NCBI GenBank assembly: GCA_002633005.1
Contig: NMRA01000544.1
Span: 168,479-232,478 of the forward strand
Direction of reading: 5' to 3'
From: Phoronis australis
Lineage: Eukaryota; Animalia; Phoronida
Length of the DNA stretch: 64,000 bases
The notes under the pieces are model-generated. The model saw only the letters and a list, made by a program, of their open reading frames with translations, had not been told where the DNA came from and did no database searches. Position 1 is the stretch's first letter, and each line of letters starts with the position of its first letter. Shown in pieces: positions 11,151 to 50,200 of the stretch. The position numbers and the translations under genes were made by a program.

Positions 11151-11337
11151 ATAGTGTACCTAAATACCAGAGTACCAGACAGACCTTAAATATCGGCCGT
11201 TTTTACCGTATAAAATCTTACTCCGAGAAATAAATTACATCATTTTTCTATTCGGCCTTAATCCATTCAATGTCTGGCACCTTCTTGTTTTTTTATAGCG
11301 TTCGCTCATTTTGATACCACTGAGACTGGGGTGTAAT

Positions 11338-11521
11338 TGCAGTGAGACTGCACATGCGAAAGTCATCTGCACTGCTTTAAAAACTGCAGTGAGACTGCAC
11401 ATGCGAAAGTCATCTGCACTGCTTTAAAAACTGCAGTGAGACTGCACATGCGAAAGTCATCTGCACTGCTTTAAAAACTGCAGTGAGACTGCACATGCGA
11501 AAATCATCTGCACTGATTTAA
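11338..11521. repeat. 47-bp minisatellite, ~4 copies
   Basis: Unit tgcagtgagactgcacatgcgaaagtcatctgcactgctttaaaaac starts at 11338, 11385, 11432 and 11479. Confidence 0.95.
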
Positions 11522-21500: not shown

Positions 21501-24500
21501 GCATTGAGAAAAAACTCAACAGTCGTATGATAAGATGTATTTGTGAGCGTTAAACTGTGTACCTTGTGAGTTGTGACAAGTTTGTTGGCAGTTGTTTTGA
21601 TTTGCTAGGTGGTCTGTTGGATTTTTTCTTGCTGTATTTATGTGAGTCTCTTTTTATCCGGCTGTTGTAACACATTTATTAATTCCAAGTTGATGTTCTT
21701 TCCATCTCATTTATGGAATATCTTTGCACTAAAATTGTTCCTTTTAGTACATTGAAAGAGTTTCACAAAGCCGTTTATTATGCTGTTTACAGTAGATATA
21801 CGGTAAAAATTCTTCAAACTGGGACGATGAGAATTTAAAATTTTTTGATTTTTCAAAGGCTTGGAACTTTGCTTTTGCATAATCAAGCTTACAATTTTTA
21901 AGTCAAATGTTCTTGAAGGCTAGTTTTGTCAAGAACTTCTATGAAATAAAATTCCTAACTAAAAGAGTTTTTACTGTAATGTAAAATATGTTTATTTTAG
22001 CCAGTATGTCAGCCACTGGTTTCATTACAGGACGTGATGTTGAGAAAATCTATTACTGCTCTGCTTGCTGGAGCTTGGAAATGGTGGACATATTCCCTAA
22101 TGCGTGAAACATGTCACCATGAGAGGCTATCAATGAGTTCCATTTCTTGCAGTGTTGCTTTATTTCTTCCGAAAACCACTACTAGGTTACTGTTTTACGA
22201 TTCCTGAATAAGCTCTACGAATCCGTTGCAAAATGTTGCAAGGTCTCTTGTTCACAATTGTTGTGGGCAGTTGTTTTAATTCTTAAACGCAGGAACAAAA
22301 TAGTGATAGTTTACATTTAACAGTAACACAAGTTTTTTGAGTTTTGATATTTGGTGTATGGAGTTAGGTTTTTTGTCAAGAAAAATGTAGAAAATATAAA
22401 GTAACTCAAAAATAAATACATTGGAAGCATTGATGGCCTTTAAAGCATTCAGTTTTTGCTAATTTATGATCATGTTACATTTCTGTGGCTGGTTATGACA
22501 ATCTCTTTTAAATTAACTTTCCACCATCTCTAACTATCTCTCTCTCTTTTTTTGTTTAATCCAGCGGAGCATTGCTCCCACGTTGTTGGACTGCCTCTCC
22601 CTTTTTATGCAAGAAGAAGTACTGGATGGCGATGAGCGTCCGCGGTGTGACCGGTGCCGCGAGCACCGGCGGTGCACCAAAAGTTTCCGCATACAAAAGT
22701 TCCCTCGAGTACTCGTGCTGCACTTGAAAAGGTTTTCGGGCGAGCGTTACCGCTCTAAACTCAGCACACAAGTTGACTACCCAGTGACAGGCCTCAGCCT
22801 AGCAGAGTTCGCCGCCTCCAGAGGTAAGTCAACATGTGATGTCCAAGATTGCCACAAAATTGGCCATGCTGTGTTGGCTTCATCGCTGTTCTTCTTGTCA
22901 TTATCAGTGTGTGGTATTATACTCGGGATGTCCATAAATGACCTCTGGGAAGCTCTTTGTGTAAAAAACTGGTAGGGCTCTTTTGTTGACCTCAACGCCC
23001 TCATTTGTCAGTGGACTTAAATAGTGCTGTAAGACGGAGCAAGTTTATGGGCTCCCATCAAACCTTATGAGTTCCAATTAAAGTTTGTAGTTATAGTGAT
23101 CACTATTTTTAAGTGTAGATGGCATTCATTAATCAGATAATGTATGAACTTATAAACGTGAATCGGATAACAGCTTTGTTTGGTTCACAATGAAATTCAT
23201 TGATGATTCCAAAGTGGTTGGTCAAGTGTCCTTATAACCACTTGTTTTGGGCTTCTTTGTCCAAGTGAACCGGTTAGTACCTAATGATGCCACAGGGAGT
23301 TGAAGACACACCGGTCATGGACTTCAAATACCAGTCATGTTTTACTTTGTTGTCAGTTTGGTTATATGCGAGTATTCTGGTGAGGCCTGTGCTGACAAGT
23401 CAGTGATAGACTTACTTTAGCAGTCCCTTTAAGGACCGAATGATAAAATAATGAAATCTTGCTTTGCTTTGCATAACTTTTGTCCCTTGACAGAAATGCA
23501 TATTAAAGACTCGACTGAAAGAGCCCCCCCTCGGTGGCATTTTGGGGAGGTCGTGTTGGCGGGAGTTCTTTCAGAAATTCCTATTATTAAAATGTTCCAA
23601 ATTATGGGCACTTATTTCCAGTTTTGTGATTTTGATAAGCTTTTGTCACATGGAGATAGATTGTATTTTATGAATAGTGTAACCTTTTACTCCTGATGTG
23701 AACGCTTAATGACACAAATATTTGGATAATTATGTTGATTGTTGAATTTTTGTCATTTTAGAAAATGAAAAGGCATGTCAGAACTAAAGGTTGATGAAAC
23801 TATTTTGTTTTCCAAGTATTTTTCTGTGAAGGGTTTATTCTGTATGCGCACTGTCACACTCGTCAGCCACTGAACCTGGTAAAAGGGAATTTGTGATCAG
23901 TCGTTCTTTAGCACTCTCACCCGTTTCTCACAGCTGCATGGTATGTTTGCTGCCTTTGACGTCCCGAGCTCCATTTATTTCTGTGTTGTCATAGATTCTC
24001 TTCCCATCCCACATTCACCAAGCTTTCCTCCAGGTCAATTTGGATTTCAATTTGTACTGGCTTAATTGGACCATGGTGGGCAGACCCTCGACTTCTTGAA
24101 AGTGGACGTCAGCTGCTGTAGGATGTGGTTTTGTTTGCACCTGCTGTGGACATGATTACCGCAAAGTAATGTAGATGAATCATCAATGCTGTTATTTTCA
24201 GGTGGTTCTAAGGCCACGTACAACCTGTACGGTGTGTCCAATCATTCAGGCAGTGTTTATTCGGGACACTATACAGCCTACTGCAAGCATCCCTACACTG
24301 GTGTGTGGATGTCATGCAACGATTCACAGTAAGTACTAAGGTTGTACAGTCAGCCTTGGCTTACAGTGCCATAGGCATGTGATAATTCATGGTCGAGTGT
24401 TTTCATGTCTTTAGGCTGTCAAGACAACAAAGACCCATATTATCAAAGGTCATAAGTTCGGTCATATCTAATGACTGTAGGCATGTCTTTTTTGCAAGAC

Positions 24501-29051: not shown

Positions 29052-29184
29052 CTAAAAGTCTAAATTAAAATCTTCCAGTTGGAAATTCTGCATCGGTTGT
29101 TGCTGTCCCAGGTTGGGCTGCAACATGCCTGGTGGTGGTATTCGCTGCTGTTGCTGCTGTTGTTGCTGTTGCTGTAAAAGTTGC

Positions 29185-29222
<38 letters not shown>

Positions 29223-32200
29223 CTGTAGTAACTGCCTTTGCTGAAAAAGACAAATTGATCATGATTTAAGCAGTGGTACCAGACAGCATACACAGAAGTT
29301 ACTTTTTCTTGTCACCGGCTTGGAATAACACAGCACACATCACAAGAAGAAGACTGGTCATCTAGCTGACCAGCAGCAAACCACAAATGGTCTGCCAGGA
29401 GTCGTCACCTGAGTCGCCTATGCAGTCGGCACTTGGGTCAGCAAACTGGTCACCTAGCTCAGATCACTGATTCGGATTATGCATATCCTAAGTTGGCAAT
29501 TACCATATTACAATAGTTTACCTTTGGCTTAACAAACACCTAACGTGAAACAAAGACTGTTACCAATCGGAGGCCTGACCATATTTGAGAACCTAGTTTT
29601 TAGGCTCGTCCTGGGTCCTTTGTCAGGGCACTGGCAGGGATTTCCATGTTATGTGGCCACCTGTGGGCGGTGATTGGCAGATGTCAAACAACACCTGTCA
29701 CATGAGAGGCGCTGGTAATTGGCCAGTAATTCGCAACCACTGTCTCTGTTCAAATCTAGATGCACTCTCGCATTTTGTGGTTCCATTATTTATTTCTCTC
29801 TAGATAATATACTAACTGTGGGTTTACAAAATAATAAACGGTGATCTCCCAGAGTTGTAGTGTTGCCACATGCCAGATGATATAATTATTAAATTGTTCT
29901 TTCCGAGCAGTCTCACCAACAGGACAATCATCACAAACTTCTTTTTGTCATATGACACCTATGTCGGGTAAACTGACACACTCTGTAGGGTGTCGAACAG
30001 TTTGAGATACATATAGGTGTTCTCTGAAAATCTTAATACTTTTTCTGAGCGACCGTGGACGAATAGAAGAGCTATGTAAACTCTAAAAGGTCAACCTCCT
30101 TGGAAGTCATTGGGTCTGGGATGGAGCATCCAGTTAGTGTAGTCATTAGCACATAAAACATCTTTGATTCCAGTCTGTTCCTTATATTTGCCATTTTCAT
30201 CTGTTACTAATTATTCTGTTTAAAAGTGCATGCACCGCTGATATTTTATATTGGTCATGATGGTTGGAGCGAAAAGTAAGGTACATGCAAATGTTATTTG
30301 GTTTCTCGTAGATGATGACCTTGGTACTGCCGTCCACCTCGATACGTATGCAGTGAAGAAACGAAACCTTGTCATTTGATGCGTGCTTGATGGTAAACTT
30401 GATGTAAAGGTCCACAGTGTTGATGTGATCTAAAAATTTGTAAACCTGATATTCCTGGATCTTGACGAAGTTGTCCCCTCCATAGTGGTACCAAAGTAAT
30501 GGGGGATGGTCGGCCATAGCGATGGCACTAGTTTCAAAACTTTTCATGCATACATTAGCGACAATGGCTGTTAAGGGCCAACCCATAGCAGCACTGTGTT
30601 GTTCTTTGTAGTAATTATGTATTTGAAATGGGGCATAAAAACCTGGTATTAAAGCAATTAATTTTTCTGGCTACAAAGCAAACTGCAAACCAACCTGTAT
30701 CAACTGTAGCATTTGTCGTTGAGAGCTGCCTTGCTGTAACTGCTGCTGCTGCTGTTGTTGTTGCTGTTGTTGCTGCTGCTGTTGCTGCTGCAAACGATAC
30801 TGTTGCTGACGAGCTAAAGAACGGGAAAAGTAATCACTGATAAGAACAATTCAGAGGATATAAAGATCTCGTCACACCAAACTGGTTATCAGAACGTCAG
30901 AACCAGTCTTAACGTTTTAATGAAACAGATCAGGGATGGGTGAAACAGGCAATACTTATTAAGCTCCCGGATGTTTTCTTTTCGCTCTCAAGATTGTACA
31001 GAGAACTACCTTAGTGTGGCATATTCTGGCTCCAGCCATCAGCAGGCAGTTGGTTATGTGCATGCCAAAAATACAAAAGTTCCTACTAAGGCATAAATGG
31101 CGATATTTGCGAATGATTCCTACAGGCTGATGACCACAGCTGTTTGTAACAAAGGCAGTGGAATTCCACCTTAATTGTCTACAATCAGTCCACAATACAG
31201 TTCAGTGAACAATCACTTTTTCTCCAAATGCACTGAATGCAGCCAAAACATTTTTGCGCAATAACATCCTTTGTTACTGAGGACTCGATTACAGATGAAT
31301 TGACAAAGAATTCAAGATTTGCAGCTTCTGTCATGACATTCCAGGCGCAACTGCAATGCTATCTGCCTCAGACCAGTGGTATGGGGTATGGACAACCCTA
31401 TCAGTCTATTTTAGCCAGATCATGTTTGTGTAAAATGCAAATGTTCAGATAGCATTGAAAAGCATGGCTGAAACAGATTTCAACTGTTCAATTTCAGTTT
31501 GATTTTGCTTTTTAGCTCAGAGATTCATGGTTCTTTGGTTCATTTGTTTCTCACAAAAGTTAGACAAATCCCAAACTTGCATACAGCCATGGAAATGCCA
31601 CAGTTATATCACTCGCCATCAAATAAAAAATCAACTCAAATTACTACTTAGCAGCATAAAACCCTAGACTGCCTTTTCTATGACACTTGGAACCCAATGG
31701 ATGGAACTACATTACCTTTTGTCCAGTTTAAATTCTCAACCTGCAAAAACTTTTCTTTTTTAAATTCAGTAATTGCGATAACTAACCAATAAATGGGTTT
31801 CAACTCGAACAACTTAAAGCAAAGCCAAAAACAACGCATTAAAATGTCTTAGTGCTATTGAGAAGAAGACAGCTGGAATTTCCAGGAAATTACCAGCAGA
31901 CCAGTGGGACGTACCCAGGACCATGGCGGCTTTCTTTTGTTCCTGTTCTCTCCGTGACGCCTCTCTAGCCTGGGCCAGCTTCAGTTCTTGATTAAGGGCC
32001 TGAACCTAAAAGGAGACGCAGCGGAAAGTGAGTGTAAAGCGGAACGTACGATAAAAACTATCAAATTTGTGAAAAAAAAACAATAATCGCATATTGCTGT
32101 TCGTTAACTTTCAGAGTCTCATTATGTTCCCGCACATGCATAAAAATACACCGATTGCTATTTGATGGCAGTTGCATTGTAACCACGCTAACAACAACGT

Positions 32201-35200
32201 TCAATTTCCTAAAGTTTTTGTTCAGACATTTAACACTGAAAATGAAATTCCACTACTACTCCATATTGTGTCTAAAACTGAACAATGTTAATTACAGAAA
32301 AATAACAATGCTACCTATGTGATTTATCCTAAAACACTGACAATAATTTCAGTGTAACCCCCAGACATCCAGCTGTAAGAAGGTAACATCTCAATTTGCC
32401 AAGGACACAAGTCCGTATCTACTTGTAAGAAGCTAGTACTCCAATTAGCATTAAGCACGATTCTGCTACATGCCATGTCGACATGGCTTTACGCAAGATG
32501 ACCCATCAGTAACAGTACAACTAAAATTAACATTATCAAAACTAAAATAAGAACTGAAACTATGTGCTATACAACTTTGCAACTCTCAAGATTGTGCATA
32601 GCTCTAAACTTTACAAGCAACTCAAAAACATGGTAAAAATTAATGTACAAGCCCTTTATTTGTGTTATAAAGTAAACTCACTTGACTTCCAGTTTGTGCC
32701 AGTCCAGCCATTTGGTTACCAGCCATAGCACCACCAGCAGCCACTTGGCCATCTTGGAATGGCATGCCCTTGAAATAGGAAACACTTTGCTAACTGTCAA
32801 ATGAGCATTAGTAGGATATAACGTGCCCGTATTTTGAGAACCAGTTTGATACCCATTATCCAGTAAAGAAAATTGGTTCTCAAAATGCGGGCACATCGTA
32901 TCCGACCATTACTGTCAAATGCAATGTCACTTGTCGATGCCTCTTTGAAAATTGCACTGAACATAATGCACCAACAACATAAATACACAACATGTCCTTT
33001 CTTATACTGCACTGGTTGGGGGGGGGGGGNAACAGCACTTGAACTGAGGAACTAAAATATCAGGGGGTGGGCGGTTCAGTCAAAGTTACTTTCATGTGAA
33101 CTCATACCTTGGCATCAGGTTTTTCAAGCGATGGATCCCACATTAGTTAATTGAAACATTCAGCACTGCCTAGCCAGTAACAGCATGTAAGTTAAGACAT
33201 TAATACAACCCACAGATGCACAGATGTCCACATGCATGACCCAGGGTGATCTTACGGGGGTAGTAAAAGGAGTATCATTTATTTCAATTTTAGGAAAGTT
33301 CCACGAGAAACACAGAGACAAGCAACAAGTTTTGATTTGTGTATACAGCCATAGTGTCCAGATACAGTGTTGGTTGACGAGTCGGTCAGAACCATTAAGT
33401 GTAGCTAGCAACTACTGAGCCCCTTTTTTCCACGGCCATCCTTAAAATATCCACATTAAATTTGAGTAGATGGAATTGCAAGCCTGTAACCAAATGGGAA
33501 GCTGCAAGATATAGCACAAACAGGTAATTGGCTAAGCTCATAGCTCTAGCTCTCTTTGCTCAGAGCCATAAGGATTTACACTGGACAGGTAAAAGGAATC
33601 CAACAAATAAGACAACCTCCTCTAAAATTAATGCAAAATCCTCACACCTCATTTTGCCATGGGGGTGATATGCGAGTTCGGAGTTCCTCTGCACTCAAGG
33701 TCTATAGAAGCTGGCTGTAGCTTTCATGAATAGCCTACCTGCTGAGAAGGCATGCCCATTGCATTTGGCGGGGGTCCTAGGTTCTGTGCAGGCATGCCCA
33801 TTGTACTCGGTGGGGGTCCCAGGTTCTGCTGCTGTAGCTGCTGCTGCTGCTGCTGCTGTATCTAGAAAAAAGTAGGCTTGTGCAAATAAACATTCACCAC
33901 ACAACTCTGTTATGCTTAGACACACATCTGAATTTTAATTTCATTGTTTCATGAGATAGTGATGACCTGGGGATCTCGTATAAAAGGGATGACCATATCT
34001 TCTCCACTGAAATATAGCCTTATTTTGACTTGTAATTCATCATTTCCTGTTGTCCAAGGCACTTATTTTCCTGGTTGCCCAGCAACTGCAATAGTCAGGA
34101 TTTTGAATGTGCCCAACAGAACACCCCTAATTAAGTTAAGGACAAACCGATGCACAGGTCACATCCTGGCGCCAGCTGATTCTACAACCTTGACAGACGT
34201 GAAGAGCACTCATGTAACTGGTGGTATGAAAGCAATTCAACATGGTGAAATCTCACCAATTTTGGGCAAAAATAAATTGCAAAAATTGACCCTTCTCAAA
34301 AGCTTCTAATATTGTTGCGTAAGCCTCAAAATGTTTAAAATGTTGTATGGCTGGAACTGTGGCACAGAGTTTGAATGTGGGAAAACATACACATCAATGA
34401 AAAAATCAAATCCCCCTCGTCCGCCACATTGCGTCACAAAATGATGAAATTTTACAGTACTTCTAGCACCAGTGGAAATGAAGTAAAATTAAATGTGCCT
34501 ATCATCATTTGCATCAGATCATCAATAAGAAAAACGTCAGAAGCTCCTCGCTAAACAAGGCATGACAACACCTGACCAGTTCAGGTCACACACAGTAAAC
34601 AGTATGGCAAAAAATTTATTTTTTCAAAATCAAAAAATCTAAGAACAAAAAATTGGAGACATAAGTTCGGGTAAATGTGCTATCCAGTAGATTATGAAAA
34701 CACACAGGACAGATATCAAAAGATGTCTAGATGTGCCTCATGCTAGAAATGAAATCACATGTTTCTCAAGAAAACAGGTACCACGGACCATTTTATGAAA
34801 ACAGCCTTATCAGGAAACAATTCAATCTCACTTCACCAAATTATAGGATCTCGGAGCATATATCCACAATTTCATCACAAACATTACAAAAATGAAGTAC
34901 TGACTTGTGAAATTTAATAGTACTTGCTTGACTTTCATTACAGCAAGCACTTACATGTTGTAATTCGGATAAAAATCAAGAAAACAGACAACTTATTCTT
35001 TTAGAATTATTTAGCCACTATGCCGACAATTCTTGACTCCAGTTAGCGACTCCATTTCTAGAAGATACCACAACTGAAGTTGTTTTATCACCAAGCAACT
35101 ACTTAGGAAATGGAAAATCATAAAAACCAACAATTTTGTAAGTACTGCGGATGCAAAAGGTAACGATGAAGATGCAGAAGCTGGGTCGCTTCTCGGCCTT

Positions 35201-38200
35201 TTGGCTAAGTTCAAAGAAAGTATACTTTGAAGAAGCACTGGAAATATGGAGACGCCATATGGAAGAAATGTAATCAAACTTTGTTTGCCTGGAAACTCGA
35301 AACCGTATAATAGAACAATGTTTGCGGAGCCGTTGAAGAAGATGTTTGCTGAATTAGACATCCCATTGACGGAAATTGTTTCATTCGGAAGCCTCACAAG
35401 GAACGATGAATGGTACATGCAACTTAGCACAAAGGTTACAGCACAGCAGTGCCTTCTGAAAGACAGTTTTATTGTGAAGTCATCAAAAAGGCCAGTCACA
35501 GCTCGATTCACCTCAGCTGAAGAGGGCGTAACCACCTGCAGAGTGCGCTGGCTGCCTCCCGGGGTTTCTGGTGCCTCAGTGGCCAAGGCCTTATCTCCTT
35601 TTGGCCAAGTTGTGGCAGTATATGAGGAAAAGTCTTCTGTCCCAGGACTGGAGTTTATGGGCACCATGGTCCGCAGGGTCGTGCTGAGAAACGCCAAAGA
35701 TATACCTCATACCTTCACCGTTGTGGACGCTAACTCACGTAGTTGGCCCATTCTCATCACCATGAAAGGAAGACCACCGTTATGTTTGAAATGCAAACAG
35801 ACTGGACATTTACGAAATAAATGCAAAACTCCCCGCTGCCGTGAGTGTCATGCCTTTGGACACTCGTCTGCTGACTGTGAGTCTAGACGGCCAACATATG
35901 CGTCACAGGTAACGACTCTTGACATAGACGTTGATGACCCGGTGGAGGACCACCCCCCTGAGGCTGCCCACACTTCTGTTGTTCCTGAAACTCAACCTGA
36001 CGTTGTCGAAGATGACATTCCTTCTGCTGCAACGCCAATACCTGACAAGACCCCCATCTTACTTATCGACCTTCCCTCGACTCCGGACATCGCCCTAAAG
36101 AGACCTGCAGTTGGTTCGTCGCACTCAGATGACTCCGATGACTCCTGCTCCTCTTTCATCAATTACAATTACAATTCACCTGGCGAGGGACCAATGTAGC
36201 CTGCCGGTTAGATCGTTTTTACATATCCAATGATATCAGCGACTATAGTGCATCCTTTTTTCCTTGTGCCTTTTCAGACCATGATTTTGTATTTCTTTGT
36301 GTCAGGGTTGCTGCCCCAAAAATCCCACTTATAATTCCTACTGGAAGTGTAACGTTTCGGTTTTAAAATCACCTCTATTCCGTAGCGATCTTATCTCTCT
36401 GTGGTCTCGCCTGGATCGAGCCCCTGTAAAGAGCCCCGAGTGGTGGGACCAGTGCAAGTGTATATTCAAATACCTTATTATTCAACACAGCAGACGTATT
36501 CGCTCTATATTACGTATTAACATAATTGTCTGAGAACGAGTATCATGAAAGGTACTTCATCATTACGATATAACTGGTAAAGGCGCTGCATTGGCATCTG
36601 AGCTGAAATGGAAACTACAATGATCCTTATATAACCTACAAAACGAAGGGGTAAAAATTCGTTCGAGAGCATGCCTCTTGGACTGTAACGAACAACCTTC
36701 TCATAATTTTCTCTTCGCGAGAAGCAAAATGCTCGCAATAAGATAATTCCGTCTCTCACTATTGGTCGGAATTTGGTGACTGATACTGAGGATATCATGA
36801 GTGAAGAGCATAATTATTATAGTACTTTATATTCACGTGAACCTCTGGATGAGGATCTCTGTGAGCAGTGCTGTAGCTGTTAATTGTGGGTTGTTAAGAA
36901 ATGCTTACTCTCAATGCCAATTACCTGCTTCTGCTGTGATTTCGTACATTTTAAAATGAAAACTTTGGCAAAACATGTTAAATTAGAAGACCATAGAAGA
37001 GCAAAAGGACTCTGAACATACCAGAGCCATCTCCGAGAAGCACCAAGACCAAACAGTATATAAGAGTCATAGATTAAGGTTGTTATAGATGGAAGAAACT
37101 GAATTTCTATCACATTCATACATGATGTACTTATTTTTTCTTTGCTTTAATAAAACCATAGATCAACTCTATACTGTCTTAATTGAGCAAGCCCATGACA
37201 TTTCGCATGGTTCCAAAACTATTTTATTATCAAAGACCCTCAATAGGGGGTGCATGAGATGATAAGTTGATAAGAATGTACTTTTAAAGATCAAAGTATG
37301 TGTTCTTTGAATGAAGAAAAATTAGAAACATGCAAACGGCATATGGAAAGTAGTGAGATTGGCGCATGCCTTTCTCAGTCACTCTCACCATTTGGGCAAG
37401 TCATCGGTGTAAAGAGAAGTCTTCCGTTACAGGAAGCTATTTGTTTGAATAATGGTTTGTTGAGTAATTATAAAACAAGCGAGAGAGGTACTGCATACTT
37501 TTTCTATGATTTACAATAAAGAACGTAGCTGGCCGGTCCTGATCACGATGAAAGGGAGGCCCCGCTTTATCTGAACTGTAAGTAGGTTGGGCACCTGAGA
37601 AGCAAATGCAAGACACCCCATTGCTGTGCCTGGCATGGATACGGTCGTTTGACTGGTAAATGGGAACCCTGTAAACATGCGTCACAGTTCAGTCCCCCTA
37701 AGCTTGAGGTGGACAATCTTCCCACTCAGGACAACACCTCCGTAATCTTTGAGACCCCGCTGGATACTGCAGCCGCTGCTTCTACAAAGACCCCAGTGCC
37801 TGCGTATCAGTCTCCTTATTTGGTAAACGGTATTTCATTATGGGACACAGCCTCTTAAACGACCAGCAAACATTTCCACATCTTCCCCTGATGACTGACG
37901 ACTCGTGCGCTTCTTTAATCACCGTTGACAGTCGTCGGCAGAAGTGGAAAGCCAGGGACTCTCTACCTCATTAGCATGGACCATTTCTGCAGAGCTTATT
38001 TTTTCACATTTTCATCCTCGGTACCTTTCACCTCATTCTAGTTTCTTCATTTTTACAATGCATATTTTAATTAAAATTTGCATACCTCAATGTTAATGGT
38101 TGTATGGACCCTACTAAGCGTAATGGTATATTTGCCCATGTCAGGTCACACAATGTGGACATAATGTTTTTGCAAGAGCCTAACAAATGTTTTTTTTGCA

Positions 38201-41200
38201 GTGTGCAGGGTAGTAAAATTTCTTTTATTACTTATTACTCCCATAGGGAGTGGGCCAATCCTGGAGGTACTGCAATACCAGGTCAACCCGTGGCAAAGGT
38301 GGAGCAAGCCCCTAACACTTCGCCCAGTTCCAAAAATCAGTTTAATATCGAAGTCCCCCAATGGGGGACGTATCAGATATTAAGCTGATAAGAACAGATA
38401 CTACACTTTGATCTTAGCCAAAAGGCCGAGAAGCGATATTGAGTGCAGTTTAACAGCTTCATTATATTTAGAGACTGCATACACTACACTGGTGTAGGTA
38501 AGTGTTTGATGCAACAATTCAGATGCTTAGTCAACAAATATCAAATGAACTATTTACCACCATCACCAGGATACAAGCAGATGAAACTGTAAACTAAAAA
38601 CATTATAAAAATCCCGGGCCATCAAGTCAATCAATTAATTTCCAAAAAATTAAAAAAGGCTTGTAGGTCAAGAAACGATGCAGTGACACCTGTTGGGAAA
38701 ATAGAGCACTGACTTCATCAATTAAAGCAGTGCTGTAGCTGTTAATTGTGGGTTGTTAAGATATGCTTACTCTCAATGCCAATTACCTGCTTCTGCTGTG
38801 ACTTTGTGCATTTAAAAATGAAAACTTTGGCAAAACATGTTAAATTAGAAGACCATAGAAGAGCAAAAGAAGGACTCTGAACAAACCAGAGCCATATCCG
38901 AGAAGCACCAAGATCAAACAGTACATCATAACAGTCCTAGATTAAGGTTGTTATAGATGGTAGAAACTGAATTTCTATCACACTCATACATGATGTACTT
39001 ATTTTTTCTTTGCTTTAATAAAACCATAAATCGACTCTATACTGTCTGAATGGAGCAAGCCCATGAATTTTTGCATGGTTCCAAAATTATTTTATTACCA
39101 AAGACCCTCAATAGCGGGTGCATGAGATGATAAGTTGATAAGAATGTACTTTTTAAGATCAAAGTATGTGTTCTTTGAAAGAAGAAAAATTAGAAACATG
39201 CAAACGGCATATGGAAAGAAGTGAGATTGGTGCATGCCTTTCTCAGTCACTCTCACCATTTGGTCAAGTCATTGCTGTAAAGAGAAGTCTTCCGTTACAG
39301 GAAGCTATTTGTTTGAACAATGGTTTGTTGAGTAATTATAAAACAAGCGAGAGAGGTACTGCATACTTTTTCTATGATTTACAATAAAGAACATAGCTGG
39401 CCGGTCCTGATCACGATGAAAGGGAGGCCCCGCTTTGTCTGAACTGTAAGTAGGTTGGGCACATGAGAAGCAAATGCAAGACACCCCATTGCTGTGACTG
39501 GCATGCATACGGCCGTTTGACTGGTAAATGGGAACCCTGTACACATGCGTCACAGTTCAGTCCCCCTAAGCTTGAGGTGGACAATCTTCCCACTCAGGAC
39601 AACACCTCCGTAAACTATGAGACCACGCTGGATACTGCAGTCGCTGCTTCTACAAAGACCCCAGTGCCTGCGTGTCAGTCTCCTTATTTGGTAAACGGAA
39701 TTTCATTATGGAACACAGCCTCTTAAACGACCAGCAAACATTTCCACATCTTCCCCTGATGACTGACGACTCGTGCGCTTCTTTAATCACCATTGACAGT
39801 CGTCGGCAGAAGTGGAAAGCCAGGGACTCTCTACCTCATTAGCATGGACCATTTCTGCAGAGCTTATCTTTTCACATTTTCATCCTCGGTACCTTTCACC
39901 TCATTCTAGTTTCTTTATTTTTACAATGCATAGTTTAATTAAAATTTGCATACCTCAATGTTAATGGTTGTATGGACCCTACTAAGCGTAATGGTAAATT
40001 TGCCCATGTCAGGTCACACAATGTGGACATAATGTTTTTGCAAGAGCCTAACAAAGGTTTTTTTGCAGTGTGCAGGGTAGTAAGATTTCCTTTATTACTT
40101 ATTACTCCCATAGGGAGTGGGCCAATCCTGGAGGTACTGCAATACCAGGTCAACCCGTGGCAAAGGCGGAGCAAGCCCCTAACACTTCGCCCAGTTCCAA
40201 AAATCAGTTTAATATCGAAGTCCCCCAATGGGGGACATATCAGATATTAAGCTGATAAGAACAGATACTACACTTTGATCTTAGCCAAAAGGCCGAGAAG
40301 CGATATTGAGTGCAGTTTAACAGCTTCATTATATTTAGAGACTGCATACACTACACTGGTGTAGGTAAGTGTTTGATGCAACAATTCAGATGCATAGTCA
40401 ACAAATACCAAATGAAGTATTTACCACCATTGCCAAGATACAAGGGGATCAAACTCTAATCTAAAAATTTTAATATAAAACTCTTGGGCCATCAAGTCAA
40501 TCAATTAACTTTTAATTAATTGCAAAGGGCTTGTTAAATGTAGGTCAAGAAACAACGTCCTGACACCTGTTGGGAAGGCCGAGAACTGATTACATGAGTA
40601 AAGGCAATGCTGTAAAGCATCGATGTAGATAACAGAGAACTCATTGTGAGCTTTTTGTGTTTTGTGTGTGTGTCCTGGTTTCACAGAGAATTGTTTTCAG
40701 AGATTATGGATACCCCCTGTGGTTGCTTTGTCACGCCAAACCTTACAGCCTTATGACAATCATTAAACACTTGAAGGATCAGTTCATTCAATATCGTATC
40801 GCTAGGTATATGGTCTTGTTTTATTTAACTAGCTGCTAAAGACACTGCCCAGAAATGTGTGTCGACCGGTAATCACGTTTTATTCAGTTGGCTGCTAAAG
40901 ACTCTCTAGAAATGTTTGATGAAGGGTGGTTTTAATATTGGACCTCTGAAGAGACCTGCAACTACTAGTTAAGATTTCAATTTCACTTCTGACCACCTAT
41001 GTACCAAGTCAGAGACAAAATACTCGTTGAAGAACACAAAACCCTTGACAACAGCGCCGTTTGTTCGACATGCCTCTACCACCAACACTGAGGAGGTGGT
41101 GTGGCTCAGTGGTTTGTACTCCGGACTCCCATTAAGGAGACCCGGGTTTGAATCCTGGCTTTACTGGCAGACAATCAAGCATTGCACGAACGAGTCTCTT

Positions 41201-44200
41201 ACTCCTCTGAGCTCGGTCTTACTAGAGAATGTACGTAAGGGAATGAATGAGAGCCTGGATATGATGCGAAAGCAAATTCTGAGGCTGTGCGCATATAACC
41301 AACCGTGAAATTGATTTGATAACGCACATATGTTATGTAGCGACAACAGACTCAATGCTCTGCACACTAAAGAAGGCCCATATCCTTCATTCTAAGACCT
41401 TCCTCTCATTGAATTACAAATAGTACTTTAACTAAGTTATAACTTTGGCCCTGACTCCCACCGATTTTGTGTTTCCTGTCCAATTTTCATATTGTGACTA
41501 TCAATTCTAGTGTTTGATCTGTCTGCAGTGCGGTGCGATTTTCTCTGATAATGTTTTCGGCAAAGTGACTAAAGAACAGGACTTGTACATAGTATACAGT
41601 AGTAGTGTAAATATTATCATTTGCTTAAGAGCTGGTTTGTTTTATTGACCCAATTGCAAGTAATGGTAATCAGATAATGTTTAAATTTTATATGTTAAAA
41701 ATAGTAAGACATAAATTTGTAGCTTCACGCTTTTACTTTTAAACATTTTTTGACATTCCTTACATTTTCGTGGACTGATGATGGAGCTGTACCTGTGGAT
41801 ATATTGTCTCTCAGTAATCCGTCAATGAATGATGAATGGAAATACCAGCATTTTTCTCCTGCCAACAGCAGTGTAACTGTCACCAAATAGTTTTCAAATT
41901 AACCATAAATGTACGACAGTGATAAGACTAGTGTAAGACGATGAAACAACTACTGACTGCTGAAGGCCTAAACGCAAGTTGATTAAAAGATTCATGACAA
42001 TAACTCTAGGCTCTCAGATAATCAAAATGGCCAGTGACATTTGTCACAGAAAATATCGCAAGGCAATGCGACATTCTACGACGGCATTCAACGCCTGCCG
42101 TACGATGCCTTTCAACCATCACATCACCTTCCCTTGCTTTCTGTTGTATGCCATATCCGTAGGGGGTCAAATCACAACTCTGTATCTAAATTTATGATCA
42201 ACAACACTGACACGTAATCATAGAATTCATCAGTGGTAATCTCTGCCTACACACTCAAGGTACCAGAGAAATAGGAATACGGCAACTCTGGTTCAACCAT
42301 TCTAAATACAAGTGCTTGGAATTATTGCATTGACAATTGTCAGTATACATGATCAGGGACTCGAACCCTTCACCTTGGAAATTTCTTGCCAAAATGAAGG
42401 TTCATAGGTGTAGCAGTTTCCAAAAGAATATTGGTATTACATCTCCTCAGCGCACCAGATTGCTGCAAGTATCGTAGGCAAAAAGCGTGCGCAAAAGAGT
42501 TGATGAGATTTTGACTGTGACCTGAAAAGACTGCCAAAATAGGAACAAAATGTTTCGAAATTTAATGCAAATATTTTTACTGCAAATGGGACATTGTACA
42601 AAAACCAGATTTTGTTCATATCGACATGCATTAAAAATTAGATGTTGATGGAAATGATAAAATCATAGTAATAATTGTAACAACATGCGTACCACAATGT
42701 AAAACACTCAACATGTTGTTATCTGGGGTGGAGCATATTTTAGTAAAAGTATTCAGTTTAAGAGTATCATTCTGGGTTCATTTCTAACTAATCTTACAAC
42801 TCGGATTCCAACTGTCCAGGAGTGAGCACTGCTTTCGCCACTGCATACCAGACAGTCAGTAATTCTAGAGAATGTTTTCCTGTCGTGGTAGAATGCCACC
42901 TGGTTCTTTGTACACTCCCGTTTGCTGGCAACAAAATCTTAAGCCTACCCGCTGGTTAGTCTGAGACTGTTTTTGTCTCATGATCAACTGCATAATCCCA
43001 GTCTTGATAGCATTCTGGTCATTAGGGATCAGGCCAATAAACGCTCGCTTCTTACGACTGAAGGTCAAGATCATGACGGACACCTCACAGCCGGGGATAG
43101 CCTTCCAGGTGATGTAGCCCACCTGTAGGGAAGATGGAAGGATTCGTGAAATATTGTACCTGAAACACGAGTCATGACCAGACCAGACAGGTTACACAAG
43201 GTTGTTCTAAAATGATGCGCTTCAGGCCATGTTAATCACATTGGTTGTGGTTTCACATATTGTTTCTTACCCATGTCACTTTCGAGAATAGACAAGAGGA
43301 CCATTACACCCACTAGCAGCCCTATCAGTTTATTAAATACATAAAATAAAAACATACAGTAATGTAACTTTTGCAAGACAGATTCTGCAGGTGTATTTCA
43401 TCTGTTCACCGCTCAAACCTTAAATTACAAATCAGGTTTCACGTCCCAAGATATGTGTTATCAGACCGGATGTTTACGAGCCGACAACAGTGTTCCTCAG
43501 TGCATTTGAAAAATGACAACGGCAGTACAGATGGAATCCCCTCATTTTACAGCAGTTCAAAAGATGACGTTTTTTTAACCCTGAACACTGCCAAAGGTGG
43601 GTGCACCGAAACACCAACACTCTAGCTGTGCTCACCATCTTTGTCTGGAGTACCAGCCTAAACAGACTTTTGAATGCATCCTGGTCACTATTGTTGAATG
43701 TGAACACGACGGTACGAGCGTCACGAAACTGCTGATGTAGTGGCTGGAGCCAAGCCTGGGGGAGCTGCTGCATGGTTATCTTTTGTGGCCACTTAGACGC
43801 ATTCCTGCGGGGAAAATGGGACAGTAGTTGAAAGGCCTCACTGAGACACTTGATAACATTAAGTACATACCGTGTCCAAATAACAATATTGAATTATGAT
43901 CATTAAAAACAACCATAAAGGGAATTTCCTTTAAACTCACAACCCAAAATCTAAATTACAAACAAGCCTTACTTCAGTCATATTACTCATATCACAATCA
44001 TTTCCATAGAATGATAAAGGAAAAGAATTTAACCCCAGCAAATTCGTGATGCAAGGCAAAAACACTGAAAAATCACCCACCAGACCTTCCAAACTTAGAC
44101 CACGTCATTTGTACATGCACTCTCAGTATCTGGTCATGCTTGAAACCAATTGCTTTCAAAGGTAAGAATGAGTGGCGTCTGATAGTTGATTAGAGAAAAC

Positions 44201-47200
44201 TGTGACAGGTCAACTACACGCACAAGCCAATGCAACACCTTGCACGTCAACACAAAACAGAGAGCAGGTGGTGAAGTTTGGTACAAGAGGACAACAGTGG
44301 TTATTGTTACCCAACATTCACAGTTTGCTGAGAAGTGCGCTGTAGCGCAAAACAAAGTTTAATTTATACAAACGTACACATCCGGATCCCCAATGCCAAC
44401 CATAACACTACAGGGTAGCGATCGAGTAATCTTTGTGCCTGGATCCATGGCTGATGTCTTGGTTTTGTCCTGCCACTCCAAGATGCCTACGACGGGAAAC
44501 AGGTCACAAAGCAGTAAGACAAAACAAAAGTACACACTCGATAACACGTCAAAAAACACGGGTGCAATATGTTTAACAACAGGATCCTGCTTCTTATAAT
44601 ATCTCCTCCCATGGGTTAGGGTCCTGAGTAACAAACTTGTATATAAAGATGGCATTCATAATTATCAGAGCGTAATAGCCTGGTCTTAATGTTCAAGGAT
44701 GTCACTGAGACAATCTCGCTTTGTACCGGCAGTGCTCAAATTCCTTTAGGAACTTCTCAGCTTCTTAGCCGCGCTTACTATTTTTACACAAAAATACCAC
44801 AATTGCCGTTTTTTCAAAATGTTTGCTGTATCAAAATACAAAGCAGGAAATGTACTTTTTCAAGTTGAACGGATATTGATTTAGCGTACGCATGGCTATT
44901 CCCTTTGCTCTGAACTCCAGCCAGCGGCGTGTGAAAAAATAATTGAAGGTGGTCTGGTACACATTGAACCAGATATGCGTAGGCCGCTTAGTCGGGCCCT
45001 TTGCTCTGACTGCTTTATTAATATATAGTTAAAACCCAGCTGAGGAACTAAAAACCTGACTACAGGGTCTAGCAGTGTGCCCCAGTAGGACTCAAATGCA
45101 TGACTACAAGACGAGTAAAGAAACCGGACACTTGTAGCAGAAGGCTACACGGCCTCCTAGAGTGTCATGTAGCACAGCCAGTTTTCTTAAAAGTTATTTT
45201 CTGGGACAATATTTTCGCAAAGTTAATTCAATAGCAGGGCAGGAATGTTCACAGTGCAAATCTGTCTTCCTGGCCAGCGTGACTGGTTTAAATGAATAGC
45301 TGGACTAATTTTCTACCACGTACTTTCAAAGCACCATGCAAAAATTTTGGGATTCAACTTTTTACGCAGAGAACCAAAAAATCTGTACTTAGCACCCGGC
45401 GTATACTGTCCAGACGTTACCATGCACTCTGATGACATCTTTGACAAGGTTCTATAGGATAATTATTTACAATGTTTTTTTTTTCAGTAACTGGATTCAA
45501 CGAATAAGTAAGTTTCCATCAGTGACTAAAAGCTTGCTCTCAGATTCAATGGGGGGATAACTCCGCATGCCTACAGCAGTCACAACAGGGAGTGCCGGCA
45601 CACTTGCACAGACCGTAGGTTGCTTGATAGGGTTAAAGCAATCTTAACCACTTCACCTACCCTTCCAGATCAACTTCTTATCTTGTTGCTGCTGAAGCAG
45701 TGCTTGTTCAAGGAGCTGCCCATGCACCGCCGGGTTGTTGACTACGTCTTCAGCATTGAAGTCTCCACCCATCATAGTGTTCTGTGGCAGTTGCTGCTGG
45801 GATAATTGCTGCTGAGATAATTGCTGCTGCTGTTGCTGAGACAAATGCTGCGACAACTTCTGCTGTTGAGACAACTGTTGCTGTTGCTGAGTTAATTGCT
45901 GTGATAACTGCTGCTGTTGTGATAGCTGCTGCTGCTGCTGCTGCTGCACCAACTGCTGCTGCTGTTGTTGAGACAACTGCTGAGACAGCTGAGAACTGGC
46001 ACTGCTGACTGGTTGAATCGAAGGCTGCGAGGCATTTGCCATCTGGGCAAGCTGCTGCATGTTCATTTGCTGTTGTTGTTGTTGCTGCTGTTGTTGCTGC
46101 TGCTGTGGCTGTGACCTGTTCATCAGATTCTGCTGTTGCTGTAAGGTGGCGCCGAGCAGTGACGGTCGCATCTGAGACTGAACGTTCATCTGCTGAGCAG
46201 CGGCAAGATTCTGAGTCACACCCTGTTGGACCATCTGCTGCTGAGCTTGTGATGTCATGGGTGGTGACATCATCATTCTTTGCGACTGTTGTTGTTGTTG
46301 CTGTTGCTGCTGCGGCGGGATGTTGGGACGGGGAATCTGTTGACGGACCTGTCCTGACTGCGAAGTGACAAGTGTCTGATTGGCCGGAGACAATGCAGAC
46401 ATAGTAGTCAACATGGTTGGCTGGGAGACAGTGGGGTTACGGCTGTTGCGCGCTGCAAGGTCAAAGTAAACACACTATGAAGGGCCAACTCAACTTATCA
46501 TGGTCTATGCCTGACCACACAATACAAATTGGAAGATGTCTTTGATAATTCCGTCATGCTGCACATCAGATTGTATCGTTTTTCAAGAAAACGTGGCAAT
46601 GATCACTTACAGCAGTTACGGATTCAGAGAACCAGTTTTATGTCAGTTATTCAGTGGAGAAAACTGATTTGTCAAAATGGATGACCACTAACAAAAACGA
46701 AGTAAGCAAACTAGAGTTCCACATTCACACATGTTGGCATTTTCAACACAGCATTTCAGACTCATGCTCAACTAATCCTTTTACCAATAAGATTCACAGA
46801 AAAGCCACCTAAGCAGTCCTCAAACTTAAGTCGTTTCTGAAAGCACTGATTAAATGAGTCATTTTGACTTTTGTTTTATGACTAGCTAATTTCTCTATCC
46901 ATAAGACAAGAATTCCTAGATGTATTTCAAATTCTCACTTATTTCCCAATGAACACACACATATATACGAGTGATGCCCATACTCACAATTTCCTGGTGG
47001 AAAGTATGTGAGAAAAACAAAGGCACATTTACTTTCTTTAAGTCCATTTTGTGCATGGATGTCTAATTGTTTTTCTATTTTTACACTCAATGAAAATATG
47101 CCCCACATAGACAGTGGCAGAAGAGATCACTGTCTTAGAGATACCCATTAGTCTCGTTCAGTCATTGTTCAGGCTTTAACTTTCATTGTGTCAATTGAGT

Positions 47201-50200
47201 AATCGGTACATTTTACAGATACATTTAATTTTTTCCTCTTTATAAAATCTTAAGCACTTTCCATCTTCAACTAGAATCTAAACATGACAGACAAAAATAG
47301 ACTAAAATAGTTATTGGGTGCCTCAACAATAATTCAGCACTGCCTCACTCTCACGTTACCCTCACCCGATATATTGGCCTGCTCCAGGACACTGTTAGCT
47401 GCTTCCTGGGCCTTCTGCGGAGCAGCCTGCCTGGGGGGCTGAACATGGGTCATCGCCGGATGTATCTGACCACCCTGGCTTTGCTGATAAACAAAAATAT
47501 TTGACAAGCTACAAATACAACAATTACTCTGGTTTTGAGGCTATTTATGGTGATAGTGTATTAAGCACTATGGTAGAAACAAACTGTCCAATAACAACTC
47601 ACTAATCACAAGGTACAAAAGACAGTACCTATCATATGGCAATAACTCTCTAAATTGGAACAGTTTCTTAAATTAGAGAAAGTGAAATTCAAACAGACAT
47701 TGTATTTTCTTGACTCTTAAGATTTGGACATGGGCGACTAAGACACAGAGTTTTATGTCAACAGTCAGAATAGACTTAGCAGTTCGTATAATTGTCAAAA
47801 ATTTGCGGACGTTAAGATTTCTTGCATCCTCATAGTGTGTAACACACACATGAAGGATTGTTTGTTGTTGATAGCAATACTTGAATTCAGGAAGGGCACT
47901 ATTGCCTACTTCTAAATTTCGGTACAAATTCCTACCCTAAGTAAAATGAAATTTGTCACTGCCTCAAATTGCAGAATTGTTAACAAAGACTGTTTTTTAA
48001 ACCGTCACTATTTGTCAAAGAAATACGTTTTCAGCATCAACAGAACACATTGAAATTTGTATGCAATTTGTTCCGATTTGATGAGGTAATACAAGAAATC
48101 CGAAATCGTCCACAGAATTAAATCGAAGTTTGTCTTTGTGCAGTCTTTAACATGAAGTACCATCACACAGGTCAAATTCTTACATTTTTTTTAATTTCAA
48201 AACATTAACTTTATTGAGCCACGCCAACGAAACAATGTACATTAAGTGTTTCTAACACTAACCTGAGAAACAGCAGTTGGCCTGACACCTTGTGAGTTCT
48301 GTGGGAATGACTGCGTGGCTGGAACATATGTAGATGAAGACCGAGGAAGAGCGGTAGTGTTCGGGTTTGGCATGGTTTGACGAGACTGTTGGGTGTCAGC
48401 TACAAGAATGGTATTGCAAAGCAGTATTCACTTAGCACAAAAATTCCATTGACTGCTTGAAAGTGTCAGAATGTAACTCTACAGTTATATCTAATCCTAG
48501 GAGCAAACTTCACAGTTTTACTTGCCCAGTCCAACCCAACCATCTTCATTGCTGCCTTCCACCTCCCTTTATCTTCCACCCCCCATTTATCTTCCACTGC
48601 CCCTTTCTGCCTCATCCTAAACTTCAGTTCAACCACTGAGTATGTCTTATATAGGACCTTATCGACTAGTCTGTACCATACAGTGAGCCATACGTCAACA
48701 AAACTAAATAACTTAAGGTTATCTGGGACCTTAATAAACGACCTCAACAACAAAGATAAAAAATATGTTTTGTCAACCATTAAAGGCATACATTTCCTGA
48801 AAGGAGAAAGATCGGGGATTCTAAAAATAAGCTTCTTGCTACTATGGCTTTGTTACTGTCACATGACAACAATTCTTAAGTCAAATTTTCATGAGCAAGG
48901 AAGGTATATTCACAGCAAAATAACCCCCCAGCCGATTTTACTAAAACTTTTTTAAATGAAAACTTTGCGTTACAACTCAAAATCTGTTAGGAATTTTTTT
49001 ATTATTCACTTAGTTAGGGTTTAATGCCAAATTAACTCCCAAAACAAAAGGTACGGAAATAAAACAGAAGTCCTATTTGTATATTGCTCAGTACACGAAA
49101 ACTAAACATTTTAAAGCAAATTCCTAACAGTGTTTTTGAGACATAACGTAAAGTTTTCATTTTGAATGTTTTAGCAAAATCAGCTGGGGGGTTATTTTGC
49201 TATGAATAGATACCTTTTTTGCACATGAAATTTTGACTTAAAAAACCTGGTCACTTGACACAAAGACCCAGTAGCAAGAACCATATTTTTAGAATCCCTG
49301 ATCTTTCTCCTTTCAGAAAATATTATGATTTCAAAGGTCGAAAATGCATAGTGTTTTATATTTGACTTAGAGTTGAGGTTGTTTATTAAGGTCCTAGATA
49401 ACCTTAACCATTCAGCCACTTCTGAGATATGATGTTCGAAAGTTGGCTTTTTTCTAGGGTCTTACATAACCTTAGCAATTCCAATTGAACACTGAAATCG
49501 ACGAATTCCAGCAACGAAATTTCAAGAACTGAATCCTGGACTACGTTCCAAAAACACAAAAATCTCCCAAGTAAAGCTGGTGAGTGTGGTCATGTGCTTT
49601 GCTTACAATGAACGGTGATATCACACTAAGCCTTGAGTGATGTTGCCTTTTTGCGAGATTCTCGCTACCCAGTTAGATAGGCTAAGCGGATTTCTTTCCC
49701 GTTCAAACAGCACGCGTACAGGTGCAACTTACCTGTAGACACTACAGAGGGACTCGAGTGCTTGACAACGTTCTGTTTATCATCCTGATCTGGCGCCGGA
49801 CTCGGTGCTCGCTCTATAACGAGAAAAGAATTATTTTAAGACAATGTCACTTAGCCACACAAAAACAACTTGCACGGCAAATTCCGTACCTGTCATGCTA
49901 TATCATTTCTAGTTTGTAAACTCTCAAACCCGACAACCAGTGAGCTCGGTGCATCTGCTAGGCCAAACGGCAAAGACGTTTTCATTGGTGGTTGGCTGCC
50001 AATGAGATTTCACTTGTTTTGGCAACTGATTTGACTCCCAAACCAATCAAATGTGTGTGTGTATTGATGTAGGTAAGGACAAGGAATCAAGAGATAAGTC
50101 AACAGAATATCAACGCTAAGTGTTACGGAATTTCATTCAACCACATGAAGTACTGAAGTGGAAAAATAAAACCTGGCACTTAGCATTATTTGCCAGTGAC

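Follow-up and report, generated by a model that had tools for sequence, protein, structure and literature searches.

An inverted junction between a decayed U2 snRNA gene and an apparently Keno-like LINE remnant, carried in a tandem U2 array of Phoronis australis

The U2 array and its surroundings

The window analysed here, a stretch of 64,000 nt of genomic DNA from Phoronis australis, contains two full-length U2 snRNA genes (Rfam RF00004), both on the minus strand, at 38245–38437 (192.7 bits) and 40112–40304 (193 bits). Both have one extra A relative to the Rfam consensus before the branch-site-pairing sequence; an additional A at this position is common in invertebrates. Each gene lies in one of two tandem units, unit 1 (about 1.87 kb, 36864–38737) and unit 2 (38726–40614), which are 94% identical over 1890 alignment columns. 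Along the strand of U2 the order is promoter, intact U2, 55 nt of 3′ flank, an inverted LINE remnant (element B, running from its APE endonuclease piece back to its head), a decayed U2 body from nt 44 (nt numbers are those of U2) and flank. At each of three joins (36864, about 37280 and about 38190) LINE sequence on the plus strand meets array sequence on the minus strand.

Between the units the intact U2 genes differ by 1.0% and the first 120 bases upstream of them by 2.5%, whereas the LINE ORF1, flank and pseudogene segments differ by 3.3–6.5% (3.3% for ORF1 of element B, 6.5% for the pseudogene); the short segments differ by 0.8% (1 of 119 positions, APE piece) and by 1 of 34 positions (junction). 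The far upstream region (38558–38737 versus 40425–40614) is 21% different, compared with 1–6% in the remainder of the unit, which suggests an older paralogous edge and an inner part that was later homogenised.

Three exons of a MED25 ACID/PTOV domain lie upstream of the array and share the strand of the U2 genes (42868–44655, minus; PF11232, E=6.9e-11, 0.0044 and 7.4e-11). The minus strand of the window carries a Q-rich gene, with more Q-rich frames at 29052–33861; these are without a Pfam match and are probably later exons of MED25. Taken as such, they would place the region 35.2–40.6 kb inside a MED25 intron, and the U2 array is probably intronic to MED25 (29052–46474) and in the same orientation. 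Both LINE remnants of the region (elements A and B) are antisense to MED25.

Elsewhere in the window, a 157-aa frame on the minus strand (30197–30670), with no Pfam match, resembles, by its motifs, a decayed Penelope-type reverse transcriptase. Long, MITE-like inverted repeats lie at 32804–32913 (44-nt arms) and 48713–49407 (nested arms of 29–62 nt), an exon of a ubiquitin C-terminal hydrolase at 22517–22975 (plus; PF00443, E=2.4e-08), a perfect 270-nt tandem pair at 57299–57837, and minisatellites of 47 and 48 nt at 11335–11521 and 14003–14194, respectively. A weak tRNA-like match (E=5.1) at 41095–41166 (plus) is possibly a SINE head.

Two LINE remnants and a decayed U2 body

Element A (35186–36863, plus) opens with a U2 head, nt 2–32, at 35186–35216, identical to the intact U2 at 30 of 31 positions (score 59, reached by 0 of 1000 shuffles) and followed loosely to about 35223 (nt 40); with Rfam at E≤10 the head, at 35185, receives just E=1. 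The element begins at nt 2 behind G bases (35183–35250). Its ORF1 (35246–36199, plus) is open over 317 aa and shows two CCHC-type motifs in translation, with a zf-CCHC match (E=0.0086) that is below the cut-off; it has 1145 relatives at E≤0.001, which were unnamed or ‘hypothetical/uncharacterized’ in all 10 clusters looked up; a further search for a name gave one match, a bivalve hypothetical protein. The true C-terminus of this ORF1 was probably lost by a deletion near 36161–36168, where loose read ends are found at 36161 and 36168. Scraps of ORF2 follow at 36168–36863 (plus), namely a C-terminal APE piece (PF03372 positions 186–225, E=0.03, below the cut-off) and then what we take, by eye and from their motifs, to be linker fragments, before the element is cut off at the start of the array.

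The 486-nt upstream flank of element A has no U2 similarity on either strand (155 and 269 of 300 shuffles did as well), and the 100 nt directly upstream have a marginal likeness to the upstream region of the intact U2 genes (in the most favourable of six tests, 47 of 2000 shuffles did as well). No plus-strand U2 body follows the element (1803 of 2000 shuffles), and a search for a target duplication around it gave 5-mers only. Element A could have come from a U2-headed transcript that was retrotransposed to a site outside U2, or could have inserted into a U2 gene, diverged and on the plus strand. Loose read ends at 35243, 35289, 36161 and 36168 indicate that other family members carry sequence lost from element A, so that more complete LINE copies probably exist elsewhere in the organism. 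At the loose end at 35243 (run X4), a third family member has U2-like letters ahead of the same 5′ UTR.

Element B occupies 37287 to about 38190, also on the plus strand. Its decayed ORF1 and spacer (37330–38066), traced by tblastn, a family HMM and nucleotide alignment, contain stops and frameshifts and have lost roughly 280 nt after the first few codons; tblastn with the ORF1 of element A gave 34% over 179 aa (E=1e-13), and the family HMM matches at 37464–37654. An N-terminal APE piece follows (38071–38187, plus; PF03372 positions 2–39, E=0.0089), and the element stops after these first 39 profile positions, some 55 nt from the 3′ end of the intact U2 gene of unit 1. At this far breakpoint (38100–38244) U2 nt 1–40 are absent from either strand (1926 and 1240 of 2000 shuffles). 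Elements A and B thus give APE matches at the two ends of the domain (E=0.03 and 0.0089), both under the curated Pfam cut-off. Among 77 frames of at least 38 aa around both elements there was no RT match, nor was there any forward LINE piece beside element A or beyond the array, and PDB searches with the APE scraps gave no meaningful match. Both elements are dead, without RT and 3′ end. Keno is an element with a separate ORF1 that bears CCHC zinc knuckles; given domain matches below the Pfam cut-offs and a missing RT, elements A and B would be called Keno-like and no closer.

Next to the head of element B, on the opposite strand, lies a U2 snRNA pseudogene with significant similarity to U2, its structure or ends lost. 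The sequence from 37276 back to 37185 (minus) aligns with the window’s own intact U2 over nt 44–136 at 77% identity (72 of 93 columns, hence 21 differences), with a score of 99 that none of 1000 dinucleotide shuffles reached (the best of them scored 32); nhmmer over the whole window places it at U2 nt 43–138 (E=7.7e-11). A preliminary description of this DNA had seen here a decayed minus-strand U2 stopping at about nt 44, and both the alignment and its comparison with shuffled controls bear this out. Rfam cmscan reported the body neither at the gathering threshold nor at E≤10. Each of its three CpG sites is mutated in at least one copy. Likeness to U2 past nt 138, into the 3′ end or flank, was suggestive in a global alignment and was rejected, 1254 of 2000 shuffles being as good. 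With its 5′ end at nt 44, the body begins 4 nt away from nt 40, which is the Keno/Utopia site in this U2. Anchored extension beyond it gave at best −1.8 bits, the step to nt 40 costing 3.7 bits and no extension toward nt 40 or 36 gaining; the adjacent bases match U2 nt 40–43, which a clean 3′ junction would keep, at 1 of 4 positions.

The strand switch itself comprises ten bases (37277–37286) that we assign to neither body nor head, since extension from either side gains at most 1.8 bits where the 90th percentile of the null is 3.3. From 37287 the plus strand carries a truncated U2 head and the 5′ UTR of element B (37287–37329): bases 37287–37296 are identical to U2 nt 23–32 (10 of 10), and the ATG of the decayed ORF1 is at 37330. 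Extending the head 5′ of nt 22–23, as far as nt 14, again gains at most 1.8 bits against 3.3. A minus-strand U2 body thus adjoins a plus-strand head and ORF1, and the element is indeed inverted relative to the U2 3′ body, as had been proposed.

The plus-strand piece had been taken for U2 lacking GTAGT. Its identity with nt 23–32 holds, and the gap belongs to one of two readings of what follows. Aligned as U2 nt 23–48 with a 5-nt gap the piece scores 25, which 8 of 2000 shuffles reached in a hand-picked 70-nt window and 59 of 1000 in 37100–37330, and this reading has no nhmmer match window-wide at E≤10; a shorter U2 reading, nt 38–48, is possible and matches at 10 of 11 positions (26 of 2000 shuffles). 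The identical 70 nt aligned with the 5′ end of the sister element A (35186) score 54 (0 of 2000 shuffles), nearly ungapped and without the 5-nt gap; when the head block is left out, the remainder as far as the start of ORF1 still scores 42 (0 of 2000). Considering this better alignment (54 versus 25), and that the third family member has U2-like letters before its 5′ UTR, the piece is most plausibly the usual 5′ junction between head and element in a Keno-like LINE, the head being cut at nt 22–23.

The imperfect palindrome reported at the junction does exist (13 pairs including two G–T, with a 2-nt bulge), and it is weak: it folds at −3.5 kcal/mol, a stability equalled by 38 of 500 shuffles even though the 36-mer had been trimmed by hand. 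A stable junction hairpin was rejected, 31–84 of 500 shuffles being equally stable in eight folds. The idea that both arms share a common 5-nt deletion, as in a fold-back copy of one decayed U2, was unsupported, extension of the left arm losing score.

One old event, also present in the reads

Each unit holds one copy of the junction motif and the window has no others; 20 of the 21 differences between the first body and intact U2 are common to the second copy. Because the copies share these differences, the decay and the junction are older than the duplication, and the two junction copies are a single event. The recurrence at 39051–39175 in the preliminary description is real as a second copy (39053–39178, in unit 2), and is not an independent one, lying as it does within a 1.87-kb tandem duplication. 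Matches to the junction motif in metagenomes are uninformative on recurrence: among the 119 matches listed (full flanks for 80), none resembles U2, the unit, element A or ORF1, and we regard them as chance matches.

Reads on 35240–38200 were drawn from four of eight listed runs (at most four samples, two studies; 18–19% of each run), the DNA runs of which may be the source of the assembly. The junction is present in these further DNA and RNA data. Ungapped contigs cross it in both DNA runs (37140–37505 and 37248–37628), and RNA reads from the second study cover it at a depth of 7–8, the only joint listed being an 84-nt skip inside element A. No strand-change joint or loose end was listed at 37140–37330 in any of the four runs, and unit-to-unit loose ends at 36864 were found in all four. 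Among the unit 1 variants listed, 21 of 23 equal the unit 2 letter. It is true that tandem near-duplicates are often misassembled, that the DNA runs may be those from which the assembly was made and that the number of units may be wrong; considering, however, the spanning contigs and RNA reads, the unit-to-unit ends in all runs and the variants that equal unit 2, an artefact at the junction itself is refuted, and the wider explanation by misassembly or chance similarity is scarcely credible.

In both RNA runs the unit is covered about four times as deeply as element A (bin averages 8.0 versus 1.8 and 10.0 versus 2.3), and its coverage is higher in DNA too, which hints that more than two units are present, read depth here being no copy number. 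Every first mate of the RNA reads over the unit lies on the plus strand; in most stranded libraries this points to RNA of the minus strand, which is what host pre-mRNA or U2 read-through should yield. Element-sense RNA of element B was not seen in the 18–19% of each run that was read.

Origin of the junction and comparison with known systems

The structure is most likely the product of ordinary rearrangement and decay in an snRNA cluster, a single, old and heavily decayed join. In particular, we tentatively favour, with a confidence that falls just short of even, one old deletion that fused two oppositely oriented U2 loci after a LINE had inserted, the scar then being duplicated with the array. 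In this reading both strands of the cluster would once have carried U2 sequences, a state still visible in element A. An inverted repeat would have been made up of the plus-strand head and the 5′ portion of the gene on the minus strand, its arms ending near nt 39, the start of the LINE, and a deletion through this repeat would have left one break near nt 40–44 and the other inside the head. Further deletions would have removed the 3′ part of the LINE to a point about 55 nt short of the next intact U2 gene, leaving the 3′ end of that gene untouched, and unequal crossing-over would have duplicated the unit. Such a scar would need no function, and may be a passenger on a unit that is kept for its intact U2 (1.0% versus 3.3–6.5% divergence).

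A deletion of this kind accounts for a single origin (20 of 21 differences common to the copies) and has a precedent in the window, where element A is a plus-strand, U2-headed element beside a minus-strand array without any fold-back. Deletions are likewise precedented, in element A near 36161–36168 and at 36864, and in element B by the loss of about 280 nt of ORF1 and the cut-off in APE. All three joins set a plus-strand LINE piece against the minus-strand array; a body ending at nt 44 and followed by ten unassigned bases suggests a join made by repair rather than the clean end of an integration; the far breakpoint has no U2 head on either strand; and no strand-change joint or loose end occurs at 37140–37330 in any of the four runs. 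The proximity of the body end to the Keno site (4 nt) speaks against it, in that a random break would fall so close about 1 time in 15 (a rough estimate, 9 of about 140 positions), and it is because of this proximity that a deletion has to lean on the putative hairpin. Moreover, the supposed deleted middle is invisible in the present sequence, the upstream region of element A is only marginally U2-like (47 of 2000 shuffles, best of six tests), and the exactly matching head block and the body could, to judge by their compatible ages, be the halves of one gene.

This last possibility is central to a later inversion within one gene, which we consider unlikely: after a normal insertion, an inversion or two-step template switch would have flipped the piece from head nt 22–23 into the element, with deletions also removing the promoter, nt 1–21 and the 3′ part of the element. 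It would directly explain why the body starts near the Keno site, it fits the compatible ages of head and body (about 22% decay) and it requires just two new joins; a T run at U2 nt 15–18 could pair with an A-rich tail, and there is a short A/T run at the join. That T run, however, cannot be assigned, one break has to lie only a few bases from the 3′ junction and another inside the 39-nt head, and the reciprocal join (head nt 1–21 against the 3′ end of the element) is absent. The earlier suggestion of an inversion ‘centred on the cleavage site’ is inexact: the element keeps its head junction, and the join is at head nt 22–23 (perhaps 14), some 17–26 nt upstream of the site. It is very improbable that the decayed body is instead the lost 3′ half of the target of element A, flipped by an inversion between the 3′ end of element A and the head of element B. 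Flipping the body and its flank would restore the order head, element A, body, and element A has no plus-strand body of its own (1803 of 2000 shuffles), but the ages differ (1 difference in 31 in the head of element A versus 21 in 93 in the body; Fisher p=0.014) and ORF1 of element A is still open.

Inversion during integration had also been proposed. In twin priming, according to PMC2912911, one DNA end pairs with the 3′ end of the RNA while the other anneals at an internal position. Here a U2-headed RNA would have been primed inside the APE region from a far-upstream top-strand end, with synthesis running on to the 5′ end of the RNA; the product would have been sealed to a first strand stalled after a few bases at the U2 site, the target head and promoter being deleted. 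One event would then yield a body near the site, an inverted piece from an internal point to the 5′ end, and an intact U2 at the far side; element A, starting at nt 2 behind G bases, would fit a full-length U2-headed transcript. According to PMC4640811, Phytophthora Utopia insertions have intact U2 upstream, not heads, and an aborted first strand with a large target deletion, as discussed there for these insertions, could excuse the missing marks of twin priming. Those marks are nevertheless missing: there is no forward 3′ piece, only ten bases lying between body and head; there is no upstream target half (U2 nt 1–39) at the internal breakpoint, where the flank is the 3′ side of the intact U2; and there is no clean start at nt 40, positions 40–43 matching at 1 of 4 and extension to nt 40 costing 3.7 bits, a test that old decay weakens. 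As to a target-site duplication and microhomology at the joins, the parent sequences are missing and decay is about 22%; extending the head as far as nt 14 gains at most 1.8 bits. In PMC4640811 the 3′ junction of this target is described as precise, unlike that seen here, and 5′ inversions were seen, according to PMC4245944, almost solely with human L1 in human cells, with 10–20 bp target duplications. Only a single event is at hand, and we consider an origin during integration unlikely, on a par with the later inversion. A bolder version, in which a Tx1/Keno element integrates backwards at its own site (by top-strand priming, copying to the 5′ end and sealing onto a barely extended first strand, so that head and body end up folded back on each other) and the antisense scrap in every unit might feed RNA that silences the family, is more doubtful still. 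Judged by title and the start of the abstract, no work with twin priming in Tx1 elements as its subject was found, nor did the literature searched yield any inverted join for elements that target U2; the inverted body-to-head structure may be undescribed.

If the favoured deletion is correct its import is small: it adds a further dead family of the Keno-like kind and shows again that copies of a junction within an snRNA array are not independent events. If instead the inversion dates from integration, 5′ inversion would be known from a site-specific Tx1 element as well as from mammalian-type L1, and strict target-site orientation could fail, which bears on the order of second-strand cleavage and priming; this is a claim too heavy for one old, decayed junction.

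Keno is an APE-type non-LTR retrotransposon of the Tx1 clade, specific for U2 snRNA, which has its U2 3′ flank in common with Utopia (PMC4640811 and PMC4494074); the shared flank begins TCTGTTCT (PMC4640811 S1 Fig and PMC6136364), which is nt 40 in this U2. The remnants described here resemble Keno in having a zinc-knuckle ORF1 followed by an APE-like start of ORF2, in beginning directly behind U2 5′ sequence that ends near nt 32–39 (nt 1 to about 38–39 in Keno), and in a U2 body that starts 4 nt from the published 3′ flank (TCTGTTCTT, nt 40 in this U2). They differ in that the copies are dead, that there is no normally oriented element-to-body junction and that the body lies on the opposite strand. 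With 5′-inverted L1 insertions made by twin priming (PMC2912911 and PMC4245944), the junction shares a piece that extends from inside the element to its 5′ end and is inverted relative to the downstream half of its presumed target; in contrast to these, it has no forward 3′ piece, upstream target half or clean 3′ junction, and no target duplication was seen. Utopia, of the RLE type, has the identical U2 target site and, according to PMC4640811, occurs in arrays with intact U2 upstream of the insertions and the head missing, whereas the endonuclease pieces found here resemble APE and a separate ORF1 is present. Finally, like the human RNU2 array (PMC3795722), the Phoronis array consists of head-to-tail units, each with one intact U2 and non-coding passenger sequence; it differs in that it is small (two units assembled), probably lies in a MED25 intron and carries as its passengers a U2 pseudogene and an inverted LINE scrap.
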